DNA of 27,076 nt from an uncultured Candidatus Saccharibacteria bacterium (GTDB lineage Bacteria; Patescibacteriota; Dojkabacteria; J137; JAEUSD01). Of this stretch, positions 350 through 26,912 are shown in pieces. Location of the stretch: assembly GCA_964525705.1 (NCBI GenBank), contig CAZGHV010000001.1, positions 1 to 27,076 on the forward strand, given 5' to 3'. Position 1 is the stretch's first letter. Each line of letters opens with the position of its first letter. The notes beneath the pieces were generated by a model. That model made no database searches. It was given only the letters and a program-made list of their open reading frames with translations, and had not been told where the DNA came from. The position numbers were made by a program, and so were the translations under genes.

Positions 350-356
350 GTGCTAA
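330..356. promoter_or_regulatory. CIRCE-like inverted repeat (HrcA operator) upstream of the Clp ATPase gene
   Basis: Minus strand TTAGCACTT-gacaaagca-GTCTGCTAG versus consensus TTAGCACTC-N9-GAGTGCTAA: 8/9 and 6/9 arm matches with an exact 9-nt spacer, directly upstream of a heat-shock gene. Confidence 0.65.
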
Positions 357-1027
357 GCTGTGCCAGGTTTCCCTATTTCATAAATGAATCCGGGGATCCT
401 CTCTGTCAGAAGTCCGCTGGGTGATAATTCAATAATGTTTAGGTGATAATCGGTGTCGGGCCAAATTAACTTTCCTCCCGGTTTCACTTGCCGTAGGAGG
501 TGTTGTGGTGGAGAGACAAGCGCGTAAGAGATTATTATTGCGTCAAACGGTGCTTTATCTTCCAGACCAAATTGACCGTCACGCAGTAAGAATTCTGTCT
601 TGCCTGCTATAGAGGGATAGTGCTGCAGCCCTTCTCTGGCATGTCTCCAAATCCAATTGATACGTTCCATGGAGAACACTTTTCCGGTATCGCCAGCTAC
701 TTGGGATAAGATTGTGGCCAGGTAGCCACTCCCTGTTCCCAGGTGTAGATATTTCCCTCCATATTTAGGTGCTAGTAGTTGTAAATACTGTGCAACTGTT
801 GTCGGGCTGGACATTTTTTCACCATAACCAAGAGGTATTTGGCTGTCATTATATGCATCATTCTTATGTGTTGCGGGCACAAAATGAATGCGGTCTACTG
901 CTCGAAAGGCATTTAAAAGCAAGGGATCATAAATCACACTTTGCCCTAGCCTGGCTACCAGATGATGATGATCCCAAGTAAATGGCTTGGCACTGCCATA
1001 GGAAGATATATGTGGTGGATTTGACAT
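353..1027 (-). CDS. pcm: Protein-L-isoaspartate O-methyltransferase family protein (divergent), 224 aa
   Basis: AFRAVDRIHFVP...AYNDSQIPLGYG..MSSP, GTGSGY, ER, DG..G...APFDAII, QVKPGGKLIWP follow the PIMT motif order. Start moved from 1339 to ATG 1027: TATAAT lies 6 nt upstream, and the longer version would overlap the divergent giant gene. Confidence 0.85.
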   Translation of the reverse strand: MSNPPHISSYGSAKPFTWDHHHLVARLGQSVIYDPLLLNAFRAVDRIHFVPATHKNDAYNDSQIPLGYGEKMSSPTTVAQYLQLLAPKYGGKYLHLGTGSGYLATILSQVAGDTGKVFSMERINWIWRHAREGLQHYPSIAGKTEFLLRDGQFGLEDKAPFDAIIISYALVSPPQHLLRQVKPGGKLIWPDTDYHLNIIELSPSGLLTERIPGFIYEIGKPGTA

Positions 1028-1039: not shown

Positions 1040-1090
1040 AACATATCTAGCTGCTGAGTCATTAACATAGCAGAATTCTCTGTGATTATG

Positions 1091-1096
1091 TATCAT
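1091..1096 (+). promoter_or_regulatory. -10 box of probable leaderless promoter for the giant surface-protein gene
   Basis: TATCAT-gtagg-ATG(1102), the same geometry as other genes in the window. Confidence 0.45.
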
Positions 1097-1112
1097 GTAG
1101 GATGTCATTTTT

Positions 1113-4100
1113 TTGAGATTGCGACTTACTTTACGACCGGCAACTTTAAAGAAAACTTTTCTCACTCTGGGTGGTGTACTCCTAGTTTTGATCTTTGCAT
1201 CTGCAGCTTGGCAAACTGCAGACGGCTCAAATATATTGGTGAATTCTGTGCAGGAAGGCTTGTCCATGATCTTGGGGGCAGATAGTGCAGATAAAATATC
1301 CAGAGCCGAGGGAATGAGGTACAGCTTGCTGAGTGACAACTATACTCGATGTCAAGGTAAATTGGGAATTGAACCAGCTGGCGGTAATACCCCAGATGTG
1401 TGGTTACAGAAAAGTGCAAATGATCTCCAAGCTTATCACCAAGCTGGATTACGTTATATTTTAGTTACTGTGCCCAATTTTCAGCAAAGCACAGTGGATA
1501 ATTCGATCAAATTGTTGGTGAAGGCGTACCGTTATCACCTAGTGCCAGTATTTGTTCTGGCGGGTTTTGACAATGGTGTGTTTGGACCAGCAGAATTGGA
1601 AAATCCCACAAACATAGTTGCTTTCTATAATGCAATTAGTACTGGAGCTGGGAATGTACAATTTGTGGCAAGCACTGCACCTAGATATATGGCGGATCAA
1701 GGGAGACTTTTGGAGATGGTAACAGTATCTGTACAGGTCGCAGAAGAGCTAAATAAAGCAATTAATCCTAGCTCTGCAGGGGGTGTGAGTGATTATGATG
1801 CAAACGTGGTTATTGCTACTCCTCCGATTCGTTGGTGGCCGTCAAACATAGGCGAAATCGATTCTTTGACTGCTACAGGATTGACAATGGATGAATTTGA
1901 TATTTTGATGTTGATCGGCCAGAACACTGGCGTGAGAACTTATGAGCAAGCCTACCAGACATATCAATCTGGCAGCTCTGGGTCTCTTATTCGCCAGTTT
2001 AACAGCCAAGAAAGGCTGTTTGCTCGCACAATGTTTGTGGGTTTTGGACCTGCACCAGGCACGCTCACAGGTAAACCACAAACTATTCCATACCCAGAGA
2101 AGGACACATTGTTAAGAATGCGCCTGGAGTATGGATATATCGCCGATGACCCACAGGTGGAAGGTGTGATTCTGAGTGAGCCATTGTTTGGTTCACTATC
2201 AATGGACACTGTTCGCATGATCCATGCCGTAGGAAATAATTGTCCATATGACATCCTTGACTATGATATTCATGAGTACGAAGAAAGGTCTGTGGCTTCT
2301 AGTTGCGCAATATCGCGTTCTTCTATAGACGTCGATCCAGATCGAGATACTGCGATTGCACGCATCGTCTGCGATGCTGATCCAGAGATGCCTACATGTG
2401 AAGGACAATTACTTTGGTCCAGGCAAATAGGTTTGCCTGTGAGGAACTTCTGCTCAAACTCTCCTTCTGGCACAGATGTGAGTATGTATGAGCCTGTGGC
2501 TTCCTACTATGCAGAGCAAACAGATTTCTGGGACCCAGCAACTGGGATATACCCAGATAGTATGGGTTTGTTTGCTGGACGGTTGGTGAGTGCAGATGGT
2601 GGCAAATACACAATTCCTTGCCTGGGCAGCGCAATTAACAATTCGGGAGAGGTGGCAAAGGCTCTATTTTATGGAGCTGTGAGTAGGTGGGCATTGAATT
2701 TAAATCTCCATCCTGCTTCTGCGCGTTGGGTGGTAGCTCAAAAGTGGAATATTGAGGTGGGCACCGGGAATAGTCTGTTTGCCTGGGTGCCTGCAGGTGA
2801 AGAAGAAGTAACAGGGGAGCGTCAACAGGAGCCAGATAGTGCGGTGGTCGCTACCAGGCAAGGCTTCAGGATTGATAATATCCGTGTACTCATAGATGCC
2901 TTTGGGCAATATGATCCAGATTCTCTTAAAGGATACGACTGGGAACAAGGTGTCTGTGGTGGTGCCACCCAAATAAACTCGCGAAATATTATTTATGGTT
3001 CGGAGGAAGCATTGCCTGTGGACATGCAAAAGGAATTCTGGAGGAATACAAAAAATCAAACCTGTTATCATGCTTGGGTTAAAGGAGATTTAGTAAAGGA
3101 GTTTGATGAAGACCCCGTTTTGAGAGCTCAAGCTCTGGCTGCCGGCAGAAATCCTCGCATAAACTGTAGAATGAATGAAAAATACTGGGCGAAGCCAGAT
3201 GAAAATGGTAATGGTGTTGAGCCGGTGGCAGATGGATTGCCTTGTTACTGTGAGGGGACTATGAATCTTGCCTCCGAGTGGGCAATAAGGAACGGAATGT
3301 GTACTTTATCAGATATTCAGATAGATTATGGTTGTATTACCTACATAGGAGGAGCGCATGCCTCGGAGGCAGATGTAGCGGCCGGTATCTCAAATTATGG
3401 TGCTTCTGTTGTGTTTCTGGAAAACTCTCGTCCAGAGGCAGGGATTGAGGAGTTTGACATTGAGGGAGCTTATGATGCCATTGCGGGACTTTACAAGACA
3501 GTACAAGATAAAATGGCAGAAAGGAATCTGCGGCTCATTTTTAACGAGAAGCTTAACTGGCGTGGGGAAGTGATGGTGCGGGCCTATGCAAAACCATATC
3601 TCACATTTTTTGAGGATAAACCATATAAGCCCTATACTCCGAGAACAAACCGTGCCCGGTCTCTCTCTTTGGCGATGCAGGGTGTGGGGGTAGCTGGGAC
3701 AATTTTGGGGGAGCAGACTTCTGTGGAGGAACAGTTGCGCAATGCAGCTTCTGTCTTGGGTAGTGCTAGTGCTGTTTGTAAAATAGGCGTAAATTTTGCA
3801 TCCACGTACTCTGGAGTAGGACAGGACAAGATAAACGAGGCCGGCGAGATAGGCTACTCCTATGGACAGATAATTGTACTTGGACCTGGTGATAGTGCAG
3901 CTGGAGTCGGAGCTACCATGTCCACTATGTGTAATGCAGGCATTGTCCCTGTAGTCAGGTCTTGCGTTATAGGTACTTGTGGATTTACTAGTGGTGCAGA
4001 CCAGGCTGCTTTTTTGAGCTCTATTCCGATTCCAGATGCTTGTGGTGAAGTGTACATGACTTGTGGACATAATGAGCCCAATACAGAGTATCCCGATTTT

Positions 4101-6881
4101 TTTGCAGAAGGACAATGGGCAAGGGAGTGTGCTACCCAGATCGATCGTAAAGGTGGGAAAGTAAAAGTAACCACTCCGATTTGGAACTCTACTTATGATA
4201 ACTTTCTGAAAGACATGCCACCGTTCTTTGACGGGTTTGGCGCTTGGGATCCTAGCCTATTTGAGTGTGTGGCGTTTAACACATATGACAACGTGGGCGG
4301 TCGTACGGCAGATACATTTTACGATCGAGTGTTTTCCTTGAGTCAGTTCTCGGGTATGGAAGCTTGCATTATGGAAACCGGAGTTTATCAAGGTGAGAAC
4401 ACTACGGCAAGTATTCGGGAATTACTGTGGAGGCTCACGGCAAAATCAAATCTATTGTTTCTACTTGGATTTAACTGGACGAATACAAATCCAGACTGGC
4501 AACATTTTGCTTTACCAGACCTGGGTGTAGAGGTTGTGGGTGAGTATTGTGACGGTCGGATATTGCCTGGAGGTCCAAGTAATGGAGGCAAAATACCATT
4601 TGAAACATACCCGCAATATGCAGCGGGGTTCTACCAAGCCGAGGGTGATCATTCGCAACTTTATTACCATTATTATGAGTATTTGGGAGTAATAGATGAA
4701 CTTACTAGAGCATTATCATTGCTTACAGATAGTCAGCTACCTGCTGGCGGATACGATGACAGCGGTGACCCTGTATCCGACCTAGCTGAGCAGTTTGCTG
4801 GCTGGACAGTTTGTGGGACAAAAGAACACCGTGAAGCGGAAGCTGCGGCAGGAGATGCAGTTAATTGCATCGGTACTTTAGTGGATGAGGATCCCTTGGG
4901 AAGCTTTCTTTGTGGAAAGGGCTATCCTGTGTATCACACTTGTGCTCCAGAGAATTATCAAGATGAGCCAAAGTGTGAGGTTGTGCCTCCGCAAAGTAAG
5001 TTGTCAAGCTTGCATTCTTTACAGCAATTGGATCCCGACTTGGTTTCAATGACGGAGAAGATAGAAAGGTTGATGTGTCTTAACCCAGGCGTCTTGCTGG
5101 CAATGCTTGAGCGCGAGATCACTGCTCGACTTCCAGAACTCACAGGCGATCCTTTCCAGCAGGTTTATGCACGTAAAGATGCGAGTCAGGAAGTGTGGGG
5201 ACCGGCACAGATACACAATATTTCTTGGATAGGCGGTGGGTATGGAGTAATAGGTAGTGATGAATTTGAAGGTGTGAAGAATCGTTTTGCAACTGGAATT
5301 TGTCTTCGCCAAATGGGTATCCCCTATGCAGAACCTATACCTGGTTGGTATCAAGATGGCATGGTGTCTAGTGGCATTTTGGAGAGGTCATATGTGGGAT
5401 ACGCTTTGTGTGGTGCAGCGGCTATACTCAAAGATAACTCTGGTACAGGCGAGAAATGTGCTAGCTGGACAAAAGAGGAAATATATAAAGCGGCAGAAAG
5501 ATATTTGGGTGCTTGTAGTCAAAATGGTAGAGAATACTGCTCTGTTTATGTGGAAACTATATGTAATCTATACCCAGAAGCAAATGCAGAAATGTGCTCT
5601 CAGCTGGGTGATATTGATGATGAGTGTCTAGAGCGCATTGATGATCCAAACGAGATTTGTGCAGATGGGCAAATCCGCTTGCTCCACCCATTACGCAATG
5701 CCGATGCTGCAGTTACTCAGCCCTATGGAGGTGACTATAATCACTCTGGAGTAGACTATCGTGCTGGTGTAGGTACCCCGGTATTTGCAGCAGCTGCCGG
5801 TATTGTCACCAATGTGGAAAGTGGATGGAGTCCAGGAACTACTACAATATCTGCAAGTGCCGGGAACTTTGTGAAGATTGAGCACAATTCTGGAGCAAGA
5901 ACCTTCTGGACAAACTATCAGCACTTAAGTAGTGTGGAAGTGCGAGTGGGGGACACTGTTCGTGTGGGTCAACTCATAGGTTACAGCGGCAATACAGGTA
6001 GAAGCAGCGGTCCACACTTGCACTTTGAACTGCGACTTGTGGACTGCTATGATGGCTACAATGAGACTGAATATGAGTTCGGCTCCTGCAGCGCAGATCC
6101 TGTACCCTTCATTTTATCTGAGGAAGAAATAGCCGCTTGTGCAGATACTTCAAAATCTCCTCCGATTGCAGCTGGTGATGAAGTTTGCCCACTGGAGGAT
6201 GTTTCCGGAGCGATTATTATCCAAACATCCACGGATAAGGGTGGATCTCATGAACGTGATGATGTTTCCCCACAGAAAGCAACAGACATTCAGGCACCAG
6301 GGCATATAGTTGTTGCACCTGTGGCAGGTACTGTCCGGGTTGTAAACCCGGTTGAAACCGTGGCGCAGTTCGGTGATGGTATATGTGATTACATAAGATT
6401 GCCCGATCACAATCCAAGTAACGACTTGGAGATAAATTGGAAAGTAATAGAGGCCCAAGGTATGGTAGAAACTCCTTCCGGCTCTGGGATATTTAGGGGT
6501 GGTTTATACAAGTATGAGTCGTTTATAGATGATGAGGGGGATTATTATTATGATGGAGGCTTTGTGGTATTAATCACAGATAAAGCAGGCAGACTGTGGA
6601 GGCTGGTGCATCTTGAACCTTTGGAAGGCAAAAGTGAGCTAGAGGTAAAGACTGGAGACACTGTGGAACCAGGTGATAGGATCGGGAGGATTTATGATGG
6701 TACGCTGGCAGGTACCTGGGCAGATTGGAGCGTAAAGCCTAGTGATGGATCTGGCTGTTTCAACGTATCGGCGGAACATATGCATTTTGCAATCATCAGT
6801 GCCAATGCTGTGGATGACCCTATTTATACTGGTAATAATATAGATTCAACCTCTTGGGTGCGGGAGCACTGTGGTCTGTAA
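1113..6881 (+). CDS. Giant (1922 aa) N-terminally anchored, Cys-rich multidomain glycan/peptidoglycan hydrolase: degenerate GH-A barrel, unknown region, GH-A barrel, SLT/lysozyme-like domain, two M23 peptidases
   Basis: Basic N-terminus plus TM helix (TFLTLGGVLLVLIFASAAW). HNEP (E988) and IMETG (E1088) form a clan GH-A catalytic pair. LNPGVLLAMLERE...WGPAQI...AAERYLG...YVETI is an SLT-like pattern. HSGVD...HLHF is M23 no. 1; H-x11-D...HL...HMHF is M23 no. 2. Start is uncertain (TTG 1113, or out-of-frame ATG 1102). Confidence 0.85.
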   Translation: MRLRLTLRPATLKKTFLTLGGVLLVLIFASAAWQTADGSNILVNSVQEGLSMILGADSADKISRAEGMRYSLLSDNYTRCQGKLGIEPAGGNTPDVWLQKSANDLQAYHQAGLRYILVTVPNFQQSTVDNSIKLLVKAYRYHLVPVFVLAGFDNGVFGPAELENPTNIVAFYNAISTGAGNVQFVASTAPRYMADQGRLLEMVTVSVQVAEELNKAINPSSAGGVSDYDANVVIATPPIRWWPSNIGEIDSLTATGLTMDEFDILMLIGQNTGVRTYEQAYQTYQSGSSGSLIRQFNSQERLFARTMFVGFGPAPGTLTGKPQTIPYPEKDTLLRMRLEYGYIADDPQVEGVILSEPLFGSLSMDTVRMIHAVGNNCPYDILDYDIHEYEERSVASSCAISRSSIDVDPDRDTAIARIVCDADPEMPTCEGQLLWSRQIGLPVRNFCSNSPSGTDVSMYEPVASYYAEQTDFWDPATGIYPDSMGLFAGRLVSADGGKYTIPCLGSAINNSGEVAKALFYGAVSRWALNLNLHPASARWVVAQKWNIEVGTGNSLFAWVPAGEEEVTGERQQEPDSAVVATRQGFRIDNIRVLIDAFGQYDPDSLKGYDWEQGVCGGATQINSRNIIYGSEEALPVDMQKEFWRNTKNQTCYHAWVKGDLVKEFDEDPVLRAQALAAGRNPRINCRMNEKYWAKPDENGNGVEPVADGLPCYCEGTMNLASEWAIRNGMCTLSDIQIDYGCITYIGGAHASEADVAAGISNYGASVVFLENSRPEAGIEEFDIEGAYDAIAGLYKTVQDKMAERNLRLIFNEKLNWRGEVMVRAYAKPYLTFFEDKPYKPYTPRTNRARSLSLAMQGVGVAGTILGEQTSVEEQLRNAASVLGSASAVCKIGVNFASTYSGVGQDKINEAGEIGYSYGQIIVLGPGDSAAGVGATMSTMCNAGIVPVVRSCVIGTCGFTSGADQAAFLSSIPIPDACGEVYMTCGHNEPNTEYPDFFAEGQWARECATQIDRKGGKVKVTTPIWNSTYDNFLKDMPPFFDGFGAWDPSLFECVAFNTYDNVGGRTADTFYDRVFSLSQFSGMEACIMETGVYQGENTTASIRELLWRLTAKSNLLFLLGFNWTNTNPDWQHFALPDLGVEVVGEYCDGRILPGGPSNGGKIPFETYPQYAAGFYQAEGDHSQLYYHYYEYLGVIDELTRALSLLTDSQLPAGGYDDSGDPVSDLAEQFAGWTVCGTKEHREAEAAAGDAVNCIGTLVDEDPLGSFLCGKGYPVYHTCAPENYQDEPKCEVVPPQSKLSSLHSLQQLDPDLVSMTEKIERLMCLNPGVLLAMLEREITARLPELTGDPFQQVYARKDASQEVWGPAQIHNISWIGGGYGVIGSDEFEGVKNRFATGICLRQMGIPYAEPIPGWYQDGMVSSGILERSYVGYALCGAAAILKDNSGTGEKCASWTKEEIYKAAERYLGACSQNGREYCSVYVETICNLYPEANAEMCSQLGDIDDECLERIDDPNEICADGQIRLLHPLRNADAAVTQPYGGDYNHSGVDYRAGVGTPVFAAAAGIVTNVESGWSPGTTTISASAGNFVKIEHNSGARTFWTNYQHLSSVEVRVGDTVRVGQLIGYSGNTGRSSGPHLHFELRLVDCYDGYNETEYEFGSCSADPVPFILSEEEIAACADTSKSPPIAAGDEVCPLEDVSGAIIIQTSTDKGGSHERDDVSPQKATDIQAPGHIVVAPVAGTVRVVNPVETVAQFGDGICDYIRLPDHNPSNDLEINWKVIEAQGMVETPSGSGIFRGGLYKYESFIDDEGDYYYDGGFVVLITDKAGRLWRLVHLEPLEGKSELEVKTGDTVEPGDRIGRIYDGTLAGTWADWSVKPSDGSGCFNVSAEHMHFAIISANAVDDPIYTGNNIDSTSWVREHCGL

Positions 6882-6897
6882 CCATAAATAGTTGATT

Positions 6898-7605
6898 ATG
6901 GAACTAATTAATCTTAAAAATTTCGTAAAAAATTTAAATTTCAAGGTACTTGTGATATTGCTTGTGGTTGTGATTGTAGTTTCTCAGATAATCCGGCTAG
7001 CGTTGTCTTCTACAAGTCGCCCTGGAACCCCGCTGAGTGATGCGGCGGGAATTTCTCAGGATACATCATATGTTGCTATAGAGCCGACACAAGTAGCTGG
7101 AGGAGGTGTGGAGAATCGCAAACTAATAGTTGTTTATGTTGAAGACCTGGATGTGCTCACATCTGCTGAGATAAAGCGTTTAATTTCTATAGCCGCAAAG
7201 ACAGAGGGACTGGTAGAGGGAGAATATCGGGTCGTAATCGAAGAATATGAGGATGATGTACCCCTCAAAGTAGATGATGCATACTTGCTAGATCCTGGAG
7301 CAATCGATTATACAGATCCTCTTACCTACGCTGAGTATGGAAATACAGCGTTAAACCACTATGCAGATCCAAATGTTATTTATGAAGGATTTACTTCCGT
7401 AACTTTTGCAGAGTATGTGGGCGAAGGCAGCATAGCCGATGAGTACTATGAGATATACCCCAGGGGCAACAACACATTTCTAGTGGTGCTTAAACTGGGT
7501 TATACACAAACCCTTTTTGAAAAAGAGGTGCTGGCATCGTTTACCAATTCTGGCAATCCGCAAATTGTTTACGAGTCTCGAGATCAGTTCTGGCTAGAAG
7601 AATAG
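6898..7605 (+). CDS. Membrane-anchored acidic hypothetical protein, 235 aa, probably co-transcribed with the giant gene
   Basis: ATG 16 nt after the giant gene's stop. Single hydrophobic helix (VLVILLVVVIVVSQII) followed by an E/D/Y-rich domain. No family recognised. Confidence 0.75.
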   Translation: MELINLKNFVKNLNFKVLVILLVVVIVVSQIIRLALSSTSRPGTPLSDAAGISQDTSYVAIEPTQVAGGGVENRKLIVVYVEDLDVLTSAEIKRLISIAAKTEGLVEGEYRVVIEEYEDDVPLKVDDAYLLDPGAIDYTDPLTYAEYGNTALNHYADPNVIYEGFTSVTFAEYVGEGSIADEYYEIYPRGNNTFLVVLKLGYTQTLFEKEVLASFTNSGNPQIVYESRDQFWLEE

Positions 7606-10641: not shown

Positions 10642-12750
10642 ATGGGTAATTTTCAGCTTAAGTCAAATTATGATCCTGCTGGTGATCAGCCAAAGGCGAT
10701 AGATGCTTTGGTGGCAGGACTGAAGTCGGGCGCACAGTTTCAGACTCTGTGGGGAGCTACAGGGACAGGGAAAACTTTCACGATGGCGAATGTTATACAG
10801 GCTGTGCAAAAGCCAACTCTGGTGTTGGCACATAATAAGACTCTAGCAGCACAATTATTCTCTGAGTTCAAAGAATTTTTCCCAGACAATGCTGTGGAGT
10901 ATTTTGTCTCCTACTACGACTATTATCAGCCAGAAGCATATGTTCCGCAGCGAGATCTGTATATTGAAAAAGACTCCGACATTAACGAAACTATTGAGAG
11001 ATATCGTAGCGCAGCTACACAGGCGTTATTAACTAGATCTGATGTAATCATTGTGGCATCGGTATCCTGTATTTACGGTATTGGGAATCCAGAAGACTAT
11101 CTTACTCTATCCAGAACATTACGAGTAGGCGAATCCTATGATCGTGATAAGCTGATTCGGCACCTAGTGGATATGCAGTATGAACGCAGCTCTGCCGACT
11201 TTTTCACTGGTATGTTTCGTGTACGTGGTGATACCGTAGATGTAAATGTGGCCGCTAATGAAAGGGCTGTGAGGATAGAATACTATGGAAATACAATTGA
11301 ACGGCTAACTGTAGTGCATCCTATTTCTGGAGAGGTGCTGGAGACGCCGGCAGAGTTGGTAATCTTCCCGGCAAAGCAGTTCGTAACGCCTTTTGAGAAG
11401 CTAAAGACAGTGATACCGCAAATCCAGAAAGATCTTGAATTGCAGGTAAAAATGTTCCGTGATAACAAAAAAGATATAGAGGCTATGCGTTTGCAGCAAA
11501 GAGTTAATTTTGATTTGGAGATGCTGCAAGAAACAGGTTATTGCAAGGGAATTGAGAATTACTCTCGCTACATAGAACGGAGGCAACCAGGAACTGCCCC
11601 TTCTTGTCTACTTGATTACTATCCGGATGACTGGTTGCTATTTATTGATGAGTCTCATATGACATTGCCACAGGTAAGAGGAATGTACAATGGTGATCGT
11701 GCTCGCAAACAGACATTGGTAGATTATGGGTTTCGTCTCCAAGCGGCTGTGGATAATCGCCCTTTAAAATATGAGGAGTTCAGGCAGCGAATACGACAAG
11801 TGGTATTTGTGAGCGCTACGCCAGGAGAAGAGGAACTTTCTTTAAGCAAAGTGGCGACAGAGCCATCGATGAGTATTAATTTAACTAAAGTTATTGAGCA
11901 AGTGATTCGTCCAACCGGCCTGTTGGATCCGGAAGTTGAAGTGCGCCCAGTTTTCCCAGAGAGTTTGTCAACTCTGCAAACGCAGTTGAAGGCAGCAAAT
12001 TATGATTATATGCCGGTGATGCGAGAAGCTGCTTGGGATAGAACGCAAGTAGCAGATCTGATTTTGGAAATAGAGAGCACAGTGGTGAAAGGACAGCGGG
12101 TACTGGTTACTACGCTCACAAAAAAAATGTCTGAGGAGTTAACTGCATTTTTGGTGGAAAAGGGAATCAAGACGCAGTATATCCATTCCGATATTGACTC
12201 TATTCAGAGGGTAGAGACTCTAAGACAATTGCGGGCCGGCGTTTATGATGTGCTGGTCGGAATTAACTTGCTGCGCGAGGGTCTAGATTTGCCGGAGGTT
12301 TCACTGGTGGCAATATTGGATGCCGATAAAGAAGGCTTCTTGCGTTCTGCAGTAAGCTTGGTGCAGACTATAGGGCGGGCAGCTAGACACGAAGAAGGAA
12401 GGGTGTTGATGTATGCCGATAAGCTCACAGACTCTATGCGTACTGCTATAGATGAGACCCGGAGGAGGCGAGCTATTCAATCGGAGTATAATTTACAGCA
12501 TCATATAGTTCCACGTAGTATTACAAAAGCTATCAGTCAGGATTTTCAGGTGCCTGTGGATACAGATGATCAGGAGAATGAGCGCAAGTATGAACTGACA
12601 AAGCGTGCAGAAAGCTATAAAGCACTCAAGAAGCCAGAACAAAAGAGGTTGCTTAAAGAGCTAGAAATGCAGATGGAAGTATATGCAGACTTGCTTGAGT
12701 TTGAGAAAGCAGCTGAGCTGCGCGATGTCATTGCACAGCTCAAGAATTAG
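10642..12750 (+). CDS. uvrB: Excinuclease ABC subunit B, 702 aa
   Basis: PAGDQPKAI, Walker A GATGTGKT, beta-hairpin YYDYYQPEAYVP, DESH, RPTGLLDP, GINLLREGLDLPEVSLVAILDADKEGFLRS, and a C-terminal UVR coiled coil. Confidence 0.98.
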   Translation: MGNFQLKSNYDPAGDQPKAIDALVAGLKSGAQFQTLWGATGTGKTFTMANVIQAVQKPTLVLAHNKTLAAQLFSEFKEFFPDNAVEYFVSYYDYYQPEAYVPQRDLYIEKDSDINETIERYRSAATQALLTRSDVIIVASVSCIYGIGNPEDYLTLSRTLRVGESYDRDKLIRHLVDMQYERSSADFFTGMFRVRGDTVDVNVAANERAVRIEYYGNTIERLTVVHPISGEVLETPAELVIFPAKQFVTPFEKLKTVIPQIQKDLELQVKMFRDNKKDIEAMRLQQRVNFDLEMLQETGYCKGIENYSRYIERRQPGTAPSCLLDYYPDDWLLFIDESHMTLPQVRGMYNGDRARKQTLVDYGFRLQAAVDNRPLKYEEFRQRIRQVVFVSATPGEEELSLSKVATEPSMSINLTKVIEQVIRPTGLLDPEVEVRPVFPESLSTLQTQLKAANYDYMPVMREAAWDRTQVADLILEIESTVVKGQRVLVTTLTKKMSEELTAFLVEKGIKTQYIHSDIDSIQRVETLRQLRAGVYDVLVGINLLREGLDLPEVSLVAILDADKEGFLRSAVSLVQTIGRAARHEEGRVLMYADKLTDSMRTAIDETRRRRAIQSEYNLQHHIVPRSITKAISQDFQVPVDTDDQENERKYELTKRAESYKALKKPEQKRLLKELEMQMEVYADLLEFEKAAELRDVIAQLKN

Positions 12751-13938: not shown

Positions 13939-15843
13939 TTACTTGCATATTGCAGCTGTTTTAGCCTCGCAAGCTGTAATTAGGTCATTTCCCGCCATAG
14001 ACATTGATTCAGTCCGCAGCCCGCAGCTAAAAGAAACAAGCGCTTTGTGCAAGATGCTTTCATCTGCAAAAACTTGCAAATTTAATATATTACCAAATGG
14101 GGGAACCCCGCCTATCTGCAGACCGTAATGTTGTTGTATTTTTTCTGGCTGCTCCATCGCTAGCTTCTCACCAGCAAGCTCCTCAACAGATTTAATATTC
14201 AGTTTGTTGCTGCCAGGTAGAATGGCGATCACGTTCTTCCCAGTCTTTTTGCCTACAAGTATTAACGATTTCACTATTGACTCTGGACTTTCTCCACTCA
14301 CCCGCATTGCATCTTTGACCGCAGAAGCTTCCTCATGCTGCATATGGGTGAAATCAATATCCCTGCTTTTAAGTAACTGGATGATTGCATTGCGCATGTC
14401 TTCACCGTTCTTAATTTGGGGAAGAGTTACTTTGATACCTAGCTCTTCCAATTGCTCATTTGTAACTGCTGCCGGAGCTTCCATCACTGCTACTTTCCCG
14501 CTACCGGTCATAGGGAAGGCAATGGCCTCTTTGAGGGAGGATTCACCGGCGAGCAGCATAACTAGCCTGTCCAGCCCGAGGGCAATGCCGCCATGGGGGG
14601 GAGTCCCGGTTGCAAACGCTTCTAGCATATGGCCGATACTCTCTTGAATTTCTGTTTCGGAGTAACCCATTATGGTTAGTGTTTGTTTCAGGATTTCTGG
14701 GCGATGAGCTCGAATACTGCCTCCACCTACCTCAAACCCGTTACATACAAGATCGTACTGTGTTGTGAGTATTTGCTCAACGTTTTCTCCAGCCATGTGC
14801 TGCTCTAGGTGCTGCTGCTTTGGCATGCTGAAGGGATTGTGTGTAAATGTCCAGCCACTTTTACTATCACGTACTTCTGCTGTATCCTTCTTGTCTACTC
14901 TTTTGAAGAATGGGAAATCTATTACCCATGCAAATGCTAGCAATCCAGCTTCCTTCTCTTCTGGGGTACGTAAGTCAAATTTATCTGCACCATACTTGCT
15001 CACGGCTTCTGCATAGGTAATTACAGGGAAGTCGGAATCACGCATTTTGCCGCCTACTGCTGTAACTGCAGATTTCACAACTTGCTCAACAAGAGAGCGA
15101 ATCTCTACCTCATCTGAGAAGCTCATCTCCAAGTCCAGCTGAGTGAACTCAAACCCACGATCTGCACGCAAATCTTCATCCCGAATACAACGAGCTACTT
15201 GGAAGTAGCGATTGATGCCGGCTGTCATCAGCAGTTGTTTATATTGTTGGGGGCTTTGAGGGAGAGCATAGAATTTTCCAGGATTAAACCTTGAAGGTAC
15301 AATAAAATCTCGCGCACCTTCTTTTGTTGATTTTGTGAGCATTGGTGTTTCGATCTCCACGAAATCCTTTGCATACAAGTTGTTCCTCAAATGGCGAATG
15401 AATTCAGAGCGCATACGCATGATGGTATTCATTCTCGGGCGTCGCAAATCCAAGTAACGGTACTTAAGGCGTGTTTCTTCATTTATGTCGTGCCCGTCCC
15501 CTTTTACAGGCAGGGGTAAGTTTGTGGCTGGGTTTAGTACTATAAAATCGCTGGACGAATCCAAGACTAGCTCGAGATTCCCTGTAGCTATCTCCGAATT
15601 AACATTTTCTGGGGCACGTTCTTGCAAGACGCCACTCACTTCCACAACTGATTCTAATGGTGTTCGTTTCATCTCTGGGATACCGCTCCCCACACATTGG
15701 ATTAGTCCAGTATGATCTCGGATATCAAGAAATGTGAGCTGACCGTGGTCTCTTCTGGAGTCTATCCAGCCCTTAATTTGAATACGGCTCCCTCGCTCTT
15801 CTTTCAATAAATCTGCTACCAAAACTCTAGTATTGTGGTTCAT
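13939..15843 (-). CDS. aspS: Aspartate--tRNA ligase (bacterial type, GAD domain absent) fused to a C-terminal YbaK/ProXp-family domain, 634 aa
   Basis: GWIDSRRDHGQLTFLDIRD, RLKYRYLDLRR, EIETPMLTKST.EGARDF, ALPQSPQQYKQLLM, FQVARCIRDEDLRADR..EFTQLDLEMSF, HNPFS, GGGSIR, PPHGGIALGLDR. The last ~150 aa carry IVKSLIL and GGVPPFG. Start at ATG 15843. Confidence 0.97.
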   Translation of the reverse strand: MNHNTRVLVADLLKEERGSRIQIKGWIDSRRDHGQLTFLDIRDHTGLIQCVGSGIPEMKRTPLESVVEVSGVLQERAPENVNSEIATGNLELVLDSSSDFIVLNPATNLPLPVKGDGHDINEETRLKYRYLDLRRPRMNTIMRMRSEFIRHLRNNLYAKDFVEIETPMLTKSTKEGARDFIVPSRFNPGKFYALPQSPQQYKQLLMTAGINRYFQVARCIRDEDLRADRGFEFTQLDLEMSFSDEVEIRSLVEQVVKSAVTAVGGKMRDSDFPVITYAEAVSKYGADKFDLRTPEEKEAGLLAFAWVIDFPFFKRVDKKDTAEVRDSKSGWTFTHNPFSMPKQQHLEQHMAGENVEQILTTQYDLVCNGFEVGGGSIRAHRPEILKQTLTIMGYSETEIQESIGHMLEAFATGTPPHGGIALGLDRLVMLLAGESSLKEAIAFPMTGSGKVAVMEAPAAVTNEQLEELGIKVTLPQIKNGEDMRNAIIQLLKSRDIDFTHMQHEEASAVKDAMRVSGESPESIVKSLILVGKKTGKNVIAILPGSNKLNIKSVEELAGEKLAMEQPEKIQQHYGLQIGGVPPFGNILNLQVFADESILHKALVSFSCGLRTESMSMAGNDLITACEAKTAAICK

Positions 15844-16729: not shown

Positions 16730-17417
16730 ATGACAAAAAGAGGAAACAACATTACAAAGCTGAGTCTGGCAATACCCTGAAGAAAACGTTGGTAGGTGTT
16801 GTACTTTTTTCTACTATCATAGGTGTTTTAATTGCAGGTGGTGAAAGTCAAAAAAGGGTCATAAGTAAGCTGGTAGGTAGAGCTGGGACCTTGCAGATCA
16901 TAGATGATCATAGAATTTTTACTCTTAGTGATGGTAGAAAACTACCGATGGTTAGCGGGATTTTTGATGCTTCAGGAACGGATGTCCAGATAAGCTGGAT
17001 TACGGGATATGGGGAGAATTGCTGGACGTATGTTTTAAAAGAAATAGGATGGCCTTTGGAGGGTGCTTGGGTGCAGCCCGATGCAGCTAGGCCGCTACTA
17101 GAAGTGTCTCATACTTTAACGAATACTTTTACAGAGGGATTTGAAAATATAGACACAGCAAACTACCCTGTGGGCACTTTATTCGTAATTAATGAAGAAA
17201 GCATGTGGGGTGCACATGTAGGTTGTTGATTGATCCTGCAACTGGGCTTACGGGAAATGATAATGGCACCGGACCAGCGTACACGGTAGAGCTCTCAAAA
17301 CTTTTTCGGACGGGTGGAGATGCGATATTTGAAGACACTGGAGAGAGTGTCAAAATAGGTGCTTACTATACCCCAAATTCTGTAGAAGCTTGGATACCAA
17401 AGCCATCTGAGAGCTAG
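16730..17417 (+). pseudogene. Frame-disrupted membrane-anchored CHAP/NlpC-P60-like cysteine hydrolase (about 229 aa if two single bases are restored)
   Basis: Adding 1 A to the A5 run (16735-39) gives MTKKRKQHYK...KKTLVGVVLFSTIIGVLIAGG. Adding 1 G at 17221-22 joins ORFs 16789-17229 and 17205-17417 as ...GENCWTYV...PVGTLFVI..WGAHVGLLIDP..., a Cys...His papain-like pattern. Confidence 0.55.
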
Positions 17418-17694
17418 GCTTTCTTATCTTGACTCGTCTGTGAGTAAGAATTTTCTCCGTGGGGAAATTTTTTCATAGTTTATCTTGATTGGAAGCAGCT
17501 TTGGCTGTTTATATCTTGGGTATCCTATTTACAAAGTTTTTGAACTCAAGATAAAATAAAAAGTAACAACCACAATTCCGGGCAGGTGCTTGAGAAAAGT
17601 GGTGGCACTACGTAGAACACCTCCCTGAACATAATGTTTTGTATTTCTTAGGACATTATAGTGGTTGAAGCCATTATTTTTTATTTGTCTTGCC

Positions 17695-19221: not shown

Positions 19222-19797
19222 ATGAGATATAAACCACCAATACCTCAAATTTCCTTTAGCATAGGAGATTCCCCCCCAAAAGCTCATGGCTTAACCCCTA
19301 TGATATTAACTACTTTTGGCGAAATTACGCCGTGGACAGCTATATATCACTTTATCAGCTGGTCACTACTTAACACTCTAAATCCAGATTCATCACCTCT
19401 ACATAAGAATGCACTTGTTTTGTTTTGTATTCCTGCAGGCAAGGAACCAGGAATGAAGCACCAAGCAGTTGAAAAGGATGCAAATGTCTTGGCTGATTTG
19501 CTATCAAAAGGCTTTGCAGTAATCATATATCGTATTGCTGAACATGGGTACACATTTTTTACCCCAACTGCCTATTTTGGAAATGATGGACTTCGTTCAT
19601 TTACATTGGAAGGCGTTATGGGACAAATTAGAGCTATTATTGCTCGCTGGGAAGGAGGTATTCGTCTACACAATTACTCTAGTGAAGTGCAAGCGTTTAA
19701 GAACCCTACAATAATTCAAGACAGATTTGGGATACTCGTGGTAGCTTTGGACGATGTGCTTATCGATGATCAACTGCTGCCTCCAGCTGAGGAATAA
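19222..19797 (+). CDS. Hypothetical protein, 191 aa
   Basis: Fills the intergenic space, with an ATG start and a -10-like element upstream. No motif recognised. Overlaps the 3' end of ppaC by 38 bp. Confidence 0.6.
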   Translation: MRYKPPIPQISFSIGDSPPKAHGLTPMILTTFGEITPWTAIYHFISWSLLNTLNPDSSPLHKNALVLFCIPAGKEPGMKHQAVEKDANVLADLLSKGFAVIIYRIAEHGYTFFTPTAYFGNDGLRSFTLEGVMGQIRAIIARWEGGIRLHNYSSEVQAFKNPTIIQDRFGILVVALDDVLIDDQLLPPAEE

Positions 19798-24440: not shown

Positions 24441-26912
24441 TTATAGAAGACCAAGTTGTTGAGGAGTAGCTGTAGACTTCTGGTTATGTTTGTCTCTTCC
24501 AGAGGGACTACTGCTGTTTGTTTGTAGCTGCTTGAGAATATCATTTGCACGCGTAATTACTTCGGCGGGAACTCCAGCCATTTTGGCAACATGCACACCG
24601 TAGCTGCGGCTTGCTGTGCCTGGAACTATTTGATGCTTAAACACAATCTCATTGTTTGTGGCAGTCACAGCGACTTGCATTGCAAATATTTGTGAATATT
24701 TGTCACAAAGTTGTCCTAACTCATGGTAGTGAGTGGCAAATAGTGCCGCGCATTTACATTTCTCAATAAGATATTCTGCTACCGACCAAGCAATGGCGAC
24801 CCCATCATAGGTGCTAGTGCCTCTACCTACTTCATCCAGGATTACCAAACTTTTTGGGGTGGCATTATTGAGGATATTCGCAGTTTCAATCATTTCTACC
24901 ATGAAAGTGGACTCGCCCCCAGCCAAATTATCGGAAGCTCCTACACGTGTAAATATTCTGTCAACTAAAGAAAACCTCATTTGGTTTGCGGGAACAAAAG
25001 ATCCTATCTGTGCCATCAAAACTAGTAGTGCAACTTGTCGAATGTAAGTAGATTTGCCGGCCATATTTGGTCCAGTGAGTAGCATGAACCTTTTCTGGGC
25101 ATCAAAGCTGGTGTTATTTGGCACAAAGTCCAGGTTGTGTCTTTCCACAACAGGGTGTCTACCAGCTTCTATTTCCAAGTGTTCCCCAGGGCATAATTCT
25201 GGCTTGATATAGCGGTATTGTCTGGCAGTAAAAGCAAATCCGGATAAGACATCTATTTGAGATATTAGAGAAGATAACTTAAGTAATTGCGGAATATATG
25301 CAGCGATTTGATCTCGTATTGATAAGAATAGCTCAAATTCTAGCGCTCGGAGTCGCTCATCTGCAGAGAGCACTTCCTCTTCCAATTGTTTTAGCTCTGG
25401 AGTAATGTAGCGTTCTGCATTTGCCAATGTCTGTTTACGAATGTAATGTTCTGGGACTTTGTGCGAGTGCGTATGCGTTACCTCGATGAAGTACCCAAAA
25501 ACTCTGTTGTAGGAGACTTTGAGTGATGGGATACCTGTTTGAGCGGCTTCTCTTGTTTGGATTTGAGTTAAGGTAATTTTATTATCTTGACGAAGTGTGC
25601 GCAGTTTATCAATTTCTTGATTGAATCCAGACACAATCACTCCCCCCATAGCAACATCGATGGGTGCTTCTGGACTGATGGATGAGACTATTAGCTGGAT
25701 GGTTGATTCTACCCAAGGAGAGTCTTCCAAATATGATTTTAATTCGGTCAAATGTTTGGAACCGTGGGTGGTTTTAATTTCGTGCAAAATCCCTAAGCAA
25801 ACCCCTAGGCTCTCTCGCAGTGAGTTCAGATCTCTAGGATTGGCAGAATTATTTCCTATCCTTCCAGCTATGCGCTCCATGTCACTTAGAGACTTAAGTT
25901 TTTCCCTCAGCTTCTCATTTAGCAAGCCGTCTGCCACCAAAATATCCACAGTCTGCCACCTCTCTTCTAAATCATTGCTCACAAGCAAAGGTCTCAGTAG
26001 CCATTGATATAGGAGTCTTCTTCCCATACTATTACTGCATTCATCAAGTACTGTAAGTAACGAAGAATTGGCATTTCCCCTGATTGACTGGACTAACTCG
26101 AGATTACGTACTGCATTACCGTCAAGTATCATGAAGTTTTGATTTTGGTAACTGGAGATTTTTTGTAACTGAGGAAGCGCAGTCTGCTGTGTCTCTATGA
26201 CGTGACCAAACAGACCCCCAAGTGCAGAGACAATAGCTGTATCTCCATTTGTGATCCCATATCCTGCCAGAGTTGTGACTCCTAACTGCGTGCAAACTAT
26301 TTGCGTGGCTCCGTTCGGATCGAATAGTTTTTTTTCTTTTGTTGTGGTGACGAAGTGCTCGGTAACGAAATTGGTTAAGTTATCTTTGCAGCCATGAGCA
26401 ACAATTACTTCTGCGGGAGAGAGCCTTTCCAATTCAGTGGTAATAATTTGTAGTTCTGAAGTCTGGAAGTATTGAACCGGACCAGTAGAGATATCGCTAA
26501 ACGCGAGAGCGTATTTGTTTGTCGTAGTATCTGTGTACACGGCTGCTAAATAGTTGGGGATATGCTCTGCTAGCATCTCATCCTCTGTGATAGTGCCGGC
26601 AGTATATATGCGTTTTACTCCCCTCTCTACGAGCTCTCCTGGTTGTGGCTGTGAGAGCTGGTCAACGACGACCACTGTGATGCCAGCTTTCAAAAGCTTG
26701 GGTAAATAGTTGTCCAAAGCATGAAACGGTATTCCTGCCATAGGTACACGATTATGATCTTTGCCCCGACCAGTGAGAGTGATACCTAGAACCTCGGATA
26801 CTTTTTCTGCATCAGCATTGAATGCTTCATAAAAATCCCCGAGCCGAAAAAGCATTACCCCATCTGGGTGCTCTTCTTTGAGTTGCTTGTATTGTTTCTG
26901 CATGGGGGTCAT
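24441..26912 (-). CDS. mutS: DNA mismatch repair protein MutS1, 823 aa
   Basis: MTPMQKQY...FRLGDFYE, PMAGIPFHA, GRHPVVE, TGPNMAGKSTYIRQ, DRIFTRVGASD, STFMVEM, DEVGRGTSTYDG, FATHYHEL. C-terminal QQLGLL resembles a beta-clamp motif. Start at ATG 26912, since the longer ORF runs into the tRNA. Confidence 0.98.
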   Translation of the reverse strand: MTPMQKQYKQLKEEHPDGVMLFRLGDFYEAFNADAEKVSEVLGITLTGRGKDHNRVPMAGIPFHALDNYLPKLLKAGITVVVVDQLSQPQPGELVERGVKRIYTAGTITEDEMLAEHIPNYLAAVYTDTTTNKYALAFSDISTGPVQYFQTSELQIITTELERLSPAEVIVAHGCKDNLTNFVTEHFVTTTKEKKLFDPNGATQIVCTQLGVTTLAGYGITNGDTAIVSALGGLFGHVIETQQTALPQLQKISSYQNQNFMILDGNAVRNLELVQSIRGNANSSLLTVLDECSNSMGRRLLYQWLLRPLLVSNDLEERWQTVDILVADGLLNEKLREKLKSLSDMERIAGRIGNNSANPRDLNSLRESLGVCLGILHEIKTTHGSKHLTELKSYLEDSPWVESTIQLIVSSISPEAPIDVAMGGVIVSGFNQEIDKLRTLRQDNKITLTQIQTREAAQTGIPSLKVSYNRVFGYFIEVTHTHSHKVPEHYIRKQTLANAERYITPELKQLEEEVLSADERLRALEFELFLSIRDQIAAYIPQLLKLSSLISQIDVLSGFAFTARQYRYIKPELCPGEHLEIEAGRHPVVERHNLDFVPNNTSFDAQKRFMLLTGPNMAGKSTYIRQVALLVLMAQIGSFVPANQMRFSLVDRIFTRVGASDNLAGGESTFMVEMIETANILNNATPKSLVILDEVGRGTSTYDGVAIAWSVAEYLIEKCKCAALFATHYHELGQLCDKYSQIFAMQVAVTATNNEIVFKHQIVPGTASRSYGVHVAKMAGVPAEVITRANDILKQLQTNSSSPSGRDKHNQKSTATPQQLGLL

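Follow-up and report, generated by a model that had tools for sequence, protein, structure and literature searches.

The 27,076-bp contig analysed here, which is the entire window to which all positions below refer, comes from an uncultured ultra-small bacterium in a lineage within the Candidate Phyla Radiation (CPR, or Patescibacteria) and carries on its plus strand a giant gene for a membrane-anchored cell-wall hydrolase. As called, this gene is a 1922-codon open reading frame (ORF) that runs from 1113 to 6881 and is opened by TTG 1113, and the public gene call for the contig (P0001) likewise comprises 1922 amino acids. Our analysis of start regions indicates that the native-type start of the giant gene is not this TTG but ATG 1102, which stands just downstream of a -10-like hexamer and is separated from the ORF by one base. 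We base this view on the start geometry of the lineage, on the in-frame starts of the orthologues, and on the absence of TTG among 60 called starts of related genes. The most parsimonious reading of the sequence is that a one-base change in the length of a homopolymer of seven thymidines (T7) separates ATG 1102 from the ORF, a reading that covers phase variation and sequencing error alike. The break is most simply a homopolymer indel, that is, either a real off or low-expression variant or a sequencing error, and not an evolved recoding device.

On the plus strand, the window reads TGTGATTATG TATCATGTAG GATGTCATTT TTTTGAGATT from position 1081 onward. The first-pass annotation, made from the sequence alone, had described a TATCAT-N5-ATG arrangement at this place, and this is correct to the base: the hexamer occupies 1091-1096, the spacer GTAGG 1097-1101 and the ATG 1102-1104. 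The reading ATG TCA TTT TTT TGA that it gave for the following codons is also accurate, with the TGA at 1114-1116, and so is its placing of the T7 at 1108-1114 and of an overlap between this TGA and the annotated start, which share the TTGA at 1113-1116 (TTG at 1113-1115). Furthermore, adding a single T to the run does fuse ATG 1102 to the giant ORF, as had been claimed, giving MSFFLRLRLTLRP (MSFFLRLRL...). Upstream, the frame of the giant ORF is closed by TAG 1098-1100, and the only in-frame NTG codons ahead of the N-terminal membrane helix (TFLTLGGVLLVLIFASAAW) are TTG 1113 and TTG 1119; within the helix there is a third in-frame TTG (1188), and an in-frame GTG appears first at codon 43, past the helix. 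An ATG that the first-pass annotation did not mention, ATG 1095, shares the frame of the giant ORF, but its next codon is TAG 1098. The sequence AGGA at 1099-1102 overlaps ATG 1102 itself and is located 10 nt before TTG 1113. Because the PCMT gene on the other side is divergent, the promoter of the giant gene is confined to the 85-nt intergenic region 1028-1112. The features concerned are listed below.

1113 to 6881, plus strand: giant ORF from TTG 1113, 1922 amino acids, with an N-terminal membrane anchor, a DNYxRCQNKLG region, NEP...E residues and a C-terminal M23 domain (from the ORF, Pfam and the orthologues).
1102 to 1116, plus strand: mini-ORF MSFF-stop, from the promoter-positioned ATG, one base off the frame of the giant ORF (read from the sequence; its stop, TGA, ends 3 of 18 genes).
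1108 to 1114, plus strand: T7 homopolymer, the putative site of a one-base length difference; T8 or T5 would link ATG 1102 to the ORF.
1091 to 1096, plus strand: TATCAT, a -10-like hexamer 5 nt before ATG 1102, in leaderless-type geometry; the sole TANNNT at a spacing of 4-7 nt among the candidate starts.
1095 to 1100, plus strand: ATG-TAG, in a frame shared with the giant ORF and closed upstream by the TAG (TAG ends 8 of 18 genes).
1119 to 1121, plus strand: second in-frame TTG, the only other NTG before the helix; it lacks a TANNNT, and its model score of 1.74 stems solely from the T-run being read as a hexamer.
1081 to 1089, plus strand: TGTGATTAT, an extended -10-like element with GATTAT at 1084-1089, found by consensus scan; its predicted transcription start site (TSS) lies at about 1095-1097, and ATG 1095 scores 1.09 through this GATTAT at N5.
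1062 to 1067, plus strand: TTAACA, the -35-like hexamer of this alternative upstream promoter (TTAACA-N16-GATTAT, 9 of 12 consensus matches, with a TG extension).
353 to 1027, minus strand: divergent PCMT gene (Pfam PCMT) with TATAAT-N6-ATG at its start and a minus-strand promoter ATGACT-N17-TATAAT.

Judged from its start regions, the CPR lineage of the contig is one that does not use Shine-Dalgarno (SD) sequences and has leaderless-type starts. We pooled the start regions of 75 genes, drawn from the window and from four related loci (L012, L013, L014 and L016). SD-like 4-mers were present upstream of only two of these starts, against 7.4 expected by chance, and a TANNNT hexamer was located 4-7 nt before the start in 36 of them, compared with 6.8% when positions are taken at random and 8.3% for ATG triplets as a whole. 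In the window itself, the hexamer stands at this distance in 9 of 15 genes versus 8.1% of the 903 ATGs (binomial P 5e-7), which bears out the earlier remark that most genes here share this geometry. An expectation-maximisation fit returned a matrix resembling TATAAT and a spacer whose main mode is 5-6 nt, and the start of uvrB, for example, has the form TATAAT-N5-ATG in the window as well as in three relatives. As for the start codons themselves, those called in the relatives (n=60) are 58 ATG, two GTG and no TTG. A -10-like hexamer adjoins the start in about half of these genes, including genes merely 14-21 nt past the preceding gene, so that many genes may possess a leaderless promoter of their own. 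These statistics show starts of the leaderless type to be near-universal in this CPR clade, and we found no statement to that effect in the searchable literature.

Among the candidate starts at positions 1088, 1095, 1102, 1113 and 1119, the TANNNT geometry is found at ATG 1102 only. The model that combines the -10 matrix with spacing gives ATG 1102 a score of 1.40, which is within the top 6.8% of all ATGs, and TTG 1113 a score of -1.0. With respect to what characterizes a leaderless start, ATG 1102 has the TANNNT at the proper spacing and no SD motif upstream, but it is out of frame with the gene. The stop codon of the mini-ORF is a genuine one: the 18 genes of the window end in TAG (8), TAA (7) or TGA (3), and a reassignment of TGA or TAG is rejected because all three stops terminate genes here.

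Word-indexed protein searches with the N-terminal 620 amino acids and with the full protein yielded no orthologue; apart from the query itself they retrieved P0002, an M23 protein that is unrelated. The orthologues were instead reached via the neighbouring ProRS gene and synteny. The order ClpC (minus strand), PCMT (minus strand), giant gene (plus strand) is kept in L012, L013 and L016/L017, and the giant orthologues are 30-36% identical to the window protein across nearly its full length. Their starts are TATTAT-N6-GTG in L012, TATATT-N5-ATG in L013, giving MSGHFSKS..., and TATTAT-N7-ATG in L016/L017. More distant family members, from two paralogue loci retrieved in a metagenome scan with the family alignment, start with TAATAT-N6-GTG (L020) and TATAGA-N7-ATG (L021). 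In each of these five related giant genes (L012, L013, L016, L020 and L021) the start codon is in frame and lies 5-7 nt after a -10-like hexamer, and none of them has the T-run, the mini-ORF or a TTG start. When tract lengths were compared, as the first-pass annotation had proposed, no run of at least 6 nt was seen near the giant start in L012, L013 and L016, nor in the start regions of L020 and L021. Judging from these orthologues, the giant gene normally has its start codon close to the -10 element. The alternative that TTG is the conserved start, in genes without the ATG, finds no counterpart in the relatives, since the five orthologues begin with ATG or GTG at that position.

In one of these loci the start has a noteworthy form: at L020 2842-2856, TAATAT-AGAG-ATGTG, an out-of-frame ATG (N4) overlaps the in-frame GTG (N6) in an AUGUG start. 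The gene call in L020 takes a downstream ATG and loses the N-terminal tail, and comparable mis-called starts occur in L021 and P0124. Several other routes to relatives yielded little: two further ProRS look-ups gave no usable giant-gene start, a scan of species-representative genomes with PCMT returned only matches of 34-39% identity in unrelated phyla, exact look-ups of the window proteins gave no records, and a scan of viral contigs with the promoter and T-run DNA gave no match.

Only seven A/T runs of at least 7 nt are observed in the window, against 6.4 in simulated sequence, and the frame break falls exactly across one of these rare runs. Among 76 genes, the T7 at 1108-1114 is the sole case in which a run close to a start goes together with a disturbed frame. 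The pattern of a TANNNT, 4-7 nt later an ATG, and then an A/T run of at least 7 nt within 12 nt has a single occurrence in the window, at this very place, and 0.27 per window in first-order Markov simulations. We estimate the chance of meeting such a pattern at the 5' edge of a gene, and in a frame that one T would repair, at about 1e-3 or less. As regards the direction of the change, the parsimonious reading is that T8 became T7; T5 having become T7 is much less likely.

Of the forms that a homopolymer indel could take, a real slipped-strand T7 allele in the sampled population, with the giant gene off or attenuated, is the one we lean towards, with a confidence that falls somewhat short of even. 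In such cells, transcription and translation would begin together a few bases past the -10 box, at ATG 1102. T8 would be the in-frame "on" allele with the product MSFFLRLRL..., and T7 would be the allele present in the DNA. A ribosome starting at the 5' AUG of the T7 mRNA would synthesize MSFF and halt at the UGA, leaving the 1922-amino-acid hydrolase off or strongly attenuated. Some residual full-length protein could nevertheless arise by three routes: incidental insertion of a U by RNA polymerase on the U7, a -1 slip of the P-site tRNA-Phe at UUU-UGA, or weak reinitiation at the overlapping UUG. Back-mutation from T7 to T8 by replication slippage would be a full switch-on, and the whole would constitute a simple contingency-like on/off switch of a surface enzyme. 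With E. coli RNA polymerase, slippage becomes detectable from T7 upward, a U being inserted in 0.75% of transcripts at T7, and out-of-frame reporters are rescued to about 5% at T7 and about 10% at T8 (PMC6260861); in A/T runs, insertions dominate (PMC5574713). By analogy, a few per cent (about 1-5%) of full-length protein made at T7 without any special signal is plausible.

Phase-variable contingency loci are known from Campylobacter, Haemophilus, Neisseria, Helicobacter and Mycoplasma, where a tract normally has 8-9 nt or more and in many cases consists of G or C. The arrangement described here resembles them in that a mononucleotide run in the first codons sets the frame of a large, fast-evolving envelope or surface gene, so that one base more or less toggles it. 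It differs in that the tract is a T7 only, seen in one length and absent from the orthologues, and in that the start is of the leaderless CPR type, so that the run would occupy +7 to +13 in the presumed mRNA. Put in terms of what defines such loci, a 5' repeat that sets the frame is present, recurrence at the same gene in relatives is absent, and the tract measures 7 nt where 8-9 nt or more is usual. The window protein does evolve quickly: between the same genomes, the giant protein is 30-36% identical, compared with 69-74% for ProRS, 68-70% for UvrB and 46-50% for PCMT. On these comparisons it behaves like a fast-evolving surface protein, and its divergence fits diversifying pressure.

A second parallel is provided by the poly(A) and poly(T) frameshifts of the insect endosymbionts Buchnera and Blochmannia (PMC3017870; PMC5009743). 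There, too, a single A/T-run indel breaks a gene that is otherwise intact in a reduced-genome, symbiont-like host, and RNA polymerase could restore the frame in some of the transcripts, as in the "compensatory" frameshifting described in PMC5009743. The tracts in those genomes, on the other hand, are 9-12 nt long and some are conserved between species, whereas the one studied here is 7 nt long, is not conserved, and would be expected from the E. coli data (PMC6260861) to allow about 1-5% rescue.

Several observations weigh against a real switch at ATG 1102. Firstly, the clusters of the giant protein and of ProRS each consist of one member from one contig, so that the tract is known from a single sample. 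Secondly, an A/T run of 7-8 nt is short for a classical contingency tract. Thirdly, the orthologues all lack a run here, which means that the switch is not conserved. In addition, MutS is present and intact, and the model score of ATG 1102 is only moderate (top 6.8% of ATGs). Finally, the better consensus promoter, TTAACA-N16-TGT-GATTAT, which is the only plus-strand site here with both hexamers and a TG extension, puts the TSS near 1095-1097 and not at 1102. From this promoter, AUG 1102 is predicted to carry a leader of 5-7 nt, which leaves the main conclusion unchanged.

The other form of homopolymer indel is an error in the consensus. The cells would then carry T8 and an ordinary leaderless gene beginning MSFFLRLRL; the assembly would have lost one T, and the gene caller would have fallen back on TTG 1113. 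We consider this possible but rather doubtful. All the evidence that makes ATG 1102 the native start serves this explanation equally, and indel errors arise mainly in homopolymers. Furthermore, there is a possible second frame break at 17205-17229, and if that were an error the contig would be less accurate than it appears. The two plus-strand ORFs involved, 16789-17229 (146 amino acids) and 17205-17417 (70 amino acids), are in different frames and both look coding, at 0.26 and 0.33 bits per codon, where real in-frame genes score 0.31 +/- 0.11 and out-of-frame sequence -0.47. The stretch 16789-17417 may be a single gene of about 209 amino acids broken at GGGG or GGTTGTTG, or it may be two genes that overlap, as others in the lineage do. 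No homologues of these ORFs were found in Pfam, NCBIfam, PDB, the related loci or viral contigs.

The rest of the contig speaks against an error. All 15 window genes that could be compared with orthologues map in a single frame from end to end, and the seven other gene-internal runs of 7-8 nt (at 4097, 7850, 12120, 14595, 18312, 19271 and 26328) are all in frame. Moreover, the number of long A/T runs is the one that composition predicts, which gives no sign that runs have been shortened systematically. Among the in-frame homopolymers are an A8 in uvrB (12120-12127), a T8 in mutS (26328-26335, A8 on the coding strand), a G7 in aspS (14595-14601) and a C7 in the hypothetical gene 19222-19797 (19271-19277). 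Homopolymer runs of at least 7 nt number nine in the window, versus 1-2 per 15-21 kb in the relatives, and the one in mutS might act as a mutator switch in its own right.

All remaining explanations take T7 to be the wild type or leave the T-run aside. Taken together, an evolved device of reinitiation after an upstream ORF and a programmed slippage site are unlikely. The first of them holds that T7 is stable and that TTG 1113 (or 1119) is the real start: either a leaderless MSFF mini-ORF would feed 70S ribosomes to the UGA/UUG overlap, or a short-leader mRNA from the GATTAT promoter would initiate at the UUG. The 5.8-kb ORF is fully open, AGGA 1099-1102 lies 10 nt ahead of TTG 1113, and the TTGA overlap of stop and start between co-directed ORFs is analogous to the ATGA overlaps seen in termination-reinitiation (PMC6728339). 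An SD-less lineage must also have a way of translating tightly spaced or overlapping downstream genes, such as those with ATGA overlaps in L012, and leaderless short ORFs are common at the 5' ends of mRNAs in mycobacteria (PMC4633059). Nevertheless, we think this explanation improbable. The mini-ORF, the TTG start and the T-run occur in none of the five orthologues, and the overlapping ATGTG of L020 has its in-frame GTG at the canonical N6. No TTG is found among the 60 called starts, and the depletion of SD-like motifs (2 against 7.4 expected) makes it unlikely that AGGA acts. UUG is a poor codon for reinitiation as well as for leaderless initiation; in mycobacteria, leaderless initiation needs AUG or GUG at the 5' end, not UUG, and a downstream codon without an SD sequence is silent (PMC4633059). 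A TTG start also leaves unexplained a homopolymer whose lengthening by one T restores a canonical start.

The site resembles ATGA/TGATG termination-reinitiation (PMC6728339) in that the upstream stop overlaps the downstream start (here TTGA), but here the start is UUG, the upstream ORF has four codons and no SD sequence within, and there is no conservation. It resembles the leaderless mRNAs and short ORFs of Actinobacteria (PMC4633059) in having a -10 box a few nt before an ATG/GTG and no SD sequence, and the 5' AUG is expected to be translated, in this case for four codons; unlike those short ORFs, the mini-ORF is not conserved and looks like a by-product of the frame break. Read as an evolved device, the four-codon upstream ORF with reinitiation that the first-pass annotation suggested is unsupported, the mini-ORF being present in none of the five orthologues. 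Reinitiation must operate somehow in an SD-less lineage, and a weak reinitiation at the UUG is possible, though nothing marks it as selected.

A related proposal is that T7 is the fixed wild type and that the giant gene is deliberately expressed through a broken start, by means of an MSFF minicistron whose UGA overlaps an SD-less UUG, of U insertion at +7 to +13, or of both. We hold this to be quite improbable. If it were true, the arrangement would be a throttle, maybe one sensitive to uridine triphosphate (UTP) or to release factor, by which a CPR episymbiont keeps a potentially self-lytic hydrolase very scarce.

Programmed recoding, in which the T7 would be an evolved slippage site with a low and maybe regulated output (RNA polymerase adding a U at +7 to +13, or tRNA-Phe slipping by -1 at UUU-UGA), appears very improbable. 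A T7 is just at the slippage threshold of a bacterial RNA polymerase that favours poly(T) (PMC6260861), insertions dominate in A/T runs (PMC5574713), and frameshifted genes are kept functional by slippage in small-genome symbionts (PMC3017870). A slippery run followed by a stop is, moreover, a known frameshift context (PMC5009743): as in the "shifty stop" of Weiss et al. 1987, cited in PMC5009743, tRNA-Phe would sit on a U-run with UGA in the A site, and its -1 re-pairing on UUU would be perfect and lead into UUG. Unlike those systems, the site has no stimulatory SD-like or structural element, is positioned at codon 4 and is not conserved. There is no downstream structure: the fold of 1102-1200 has a minimum free energy of -15.7 kcal/mol (z = -0.10), and 86 of 200 shuffled sequences fold as well. 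The codons read from the ATG, UCA UUU UUU UGA, form the heptamer A_UUU_UUU and not X_XXY_YYZ, so that only a single P-site slip at the UGA is possible. In addition, known programmed or tolerated slippage tracts have at least 9 nt, here there are 7, and the slippage efficiency expected at T7 is only about 1-5%. Both slippage mechanisms that had been put forward at first pass hence lack support as evolved devices: slippage of tRNA-Phe, because of the missing conservation and downstream structure and the nature of the heptamer; slippage of RNA polymerase, because the T-run is found in no orthologue. As an incidental, low-level rescue, the two are plausible.

We give very little credence to the idea that the native start is ATG 1095 (GATTAT-N5-ATG), disabled by the codon-2 nonsense triplet TAG 1098, or that the geometry at ATG 1102 is a chance match. 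It is true that GATTAT belongs to the only full consensus promoter on the plus strand, that ATG 1095 shares the reading frame of the ORF and has a model score (1.09) near that of ATG 1102 (1.40), and that 8% of all ATGs match the geometry by chance. Yet this idea needs a specific substitution to a stop codon, an event much less frequent than an indel in a homopolymer, GATTAT does not have the initial T of TANNNT, and the exact one-T relation of ATG 1102 to the ORF would be left as a coincidence (about 1e-3).

Four further candidates were rejected. SD-led initiation at TTG 1113 by means of AGGA 1099-1102 fails because SD motifs are depleted at the starts of the lineage. A -10 element directly serving TTG 1113 or 1119 fails as well, since TGTCAT and TAGGAT score below 0 and TTTTTT is an artefact of the AT-rich matrix. 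The two UUU codons might recall a pheL-type leader peptide that senses Phe, but this would be expected to come with an alternative RNA structure and a link to Phe metabolism, and we see neither. UTP-sensing reiterative transcription like that of pyrBI does not fit a run at +7 to +13 instead of the 5' end of the transcript, nor a gene unrelated to pyrimidines, and is retained solely within the throttle proposal above.

Concerning the protein itself, the label "hydrolase" given at first pass is justified by a C-terminal M23 domain (PF01551 at amino acids 1543-1641, scoring 104.5 bits where the cut-off is 28.7) with the HxH motif present as GPHLHFE, and among PDB sequences the profile of this family matches ShyA, LytM, lysostaphin and zoocin A. 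It is the sole recognised domain: for the remaining ca. 1500 residues, searches of Pfam, NCBIfam and PDB sequences gave no match. Residues N987-E988 and E1088 are invariant in the family (CGHNEP ... IMETG), and the DNYxRCQNKLG block is conserved; judged by sequence motif, the invariant NEP...E residues might resemble those of a clan GH-A glycosidase. A HMMER scan recovered 49 family representatives (50% clustering; family ids include P0123-P0170), mostly of 1500-2300 amino acids. This giant membrane-anchored family is CPR-specific, and its C-terminal modules vary, with Amidase_2 in L013 and no M23 in L016.

Downstream, the giant gene has a conserved partner, a small membrane-protein gene that follows it in all syntenic loci.

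6898 to 7605, plus strand: small membrane-protein gene, 16 nt past the giant gene (tblastn: L012 7267-7989, 39% identity; also L013 9184-9615).

The other neighbours in the window are housekeeping genes: ClpC, PCMT, ProRS, HhH-GPD glycosylase, UvrB, AspRS, MnmA, Mfd, MutS and tRNA-Leu. ProRS shares 66-74% identity with proteins from uncultured Patescibacteria/CPR, of which the closest with a name belongs to a metagenome-assembled genome labelled Candidatus Doudnabacteria. The AspRS-type class II synthetase (13939-15843, minus strand) has a C-terminal tRNA_edit (YbaK-like) domain, and this fusion is found in all relatives (L012-L016) at 599-636 amino acids. Finally, a non-coding stretch of 280-730 nt upstream of the gene for a hibernation factor (S30AE) is conserved in position in genomes that are otherwise very compact, and it may be an RNA element or leader. 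Its locations are the following.

17418 to 17694 in the window: non-coding stretch upstream of the S30AE gene.
20620 to 21357 in L013: the same.
14491 to 15026 in L014: the same.
20450 to 21052 in L016: the same.

A frameshift in a start-proximal homopolymer would, if it is real at all, be an already known kind of event. What it may add concerns the organisms in which it is found. In leaderless, SD-less lineages, a TTG called as the start a few bases past a -10-positioned ATG flags a frame break, either an error or a real variant, and not a genuine rare start. Members of the CPR/Patescibacteria presumably live on the surface of other cells, and gene regulation in them is almost unexplored. If the T7 allele is real, it would be a candidate mutational switch, turning on and off or attenuating a giant, fast-evolving cell-wall hydrolase.

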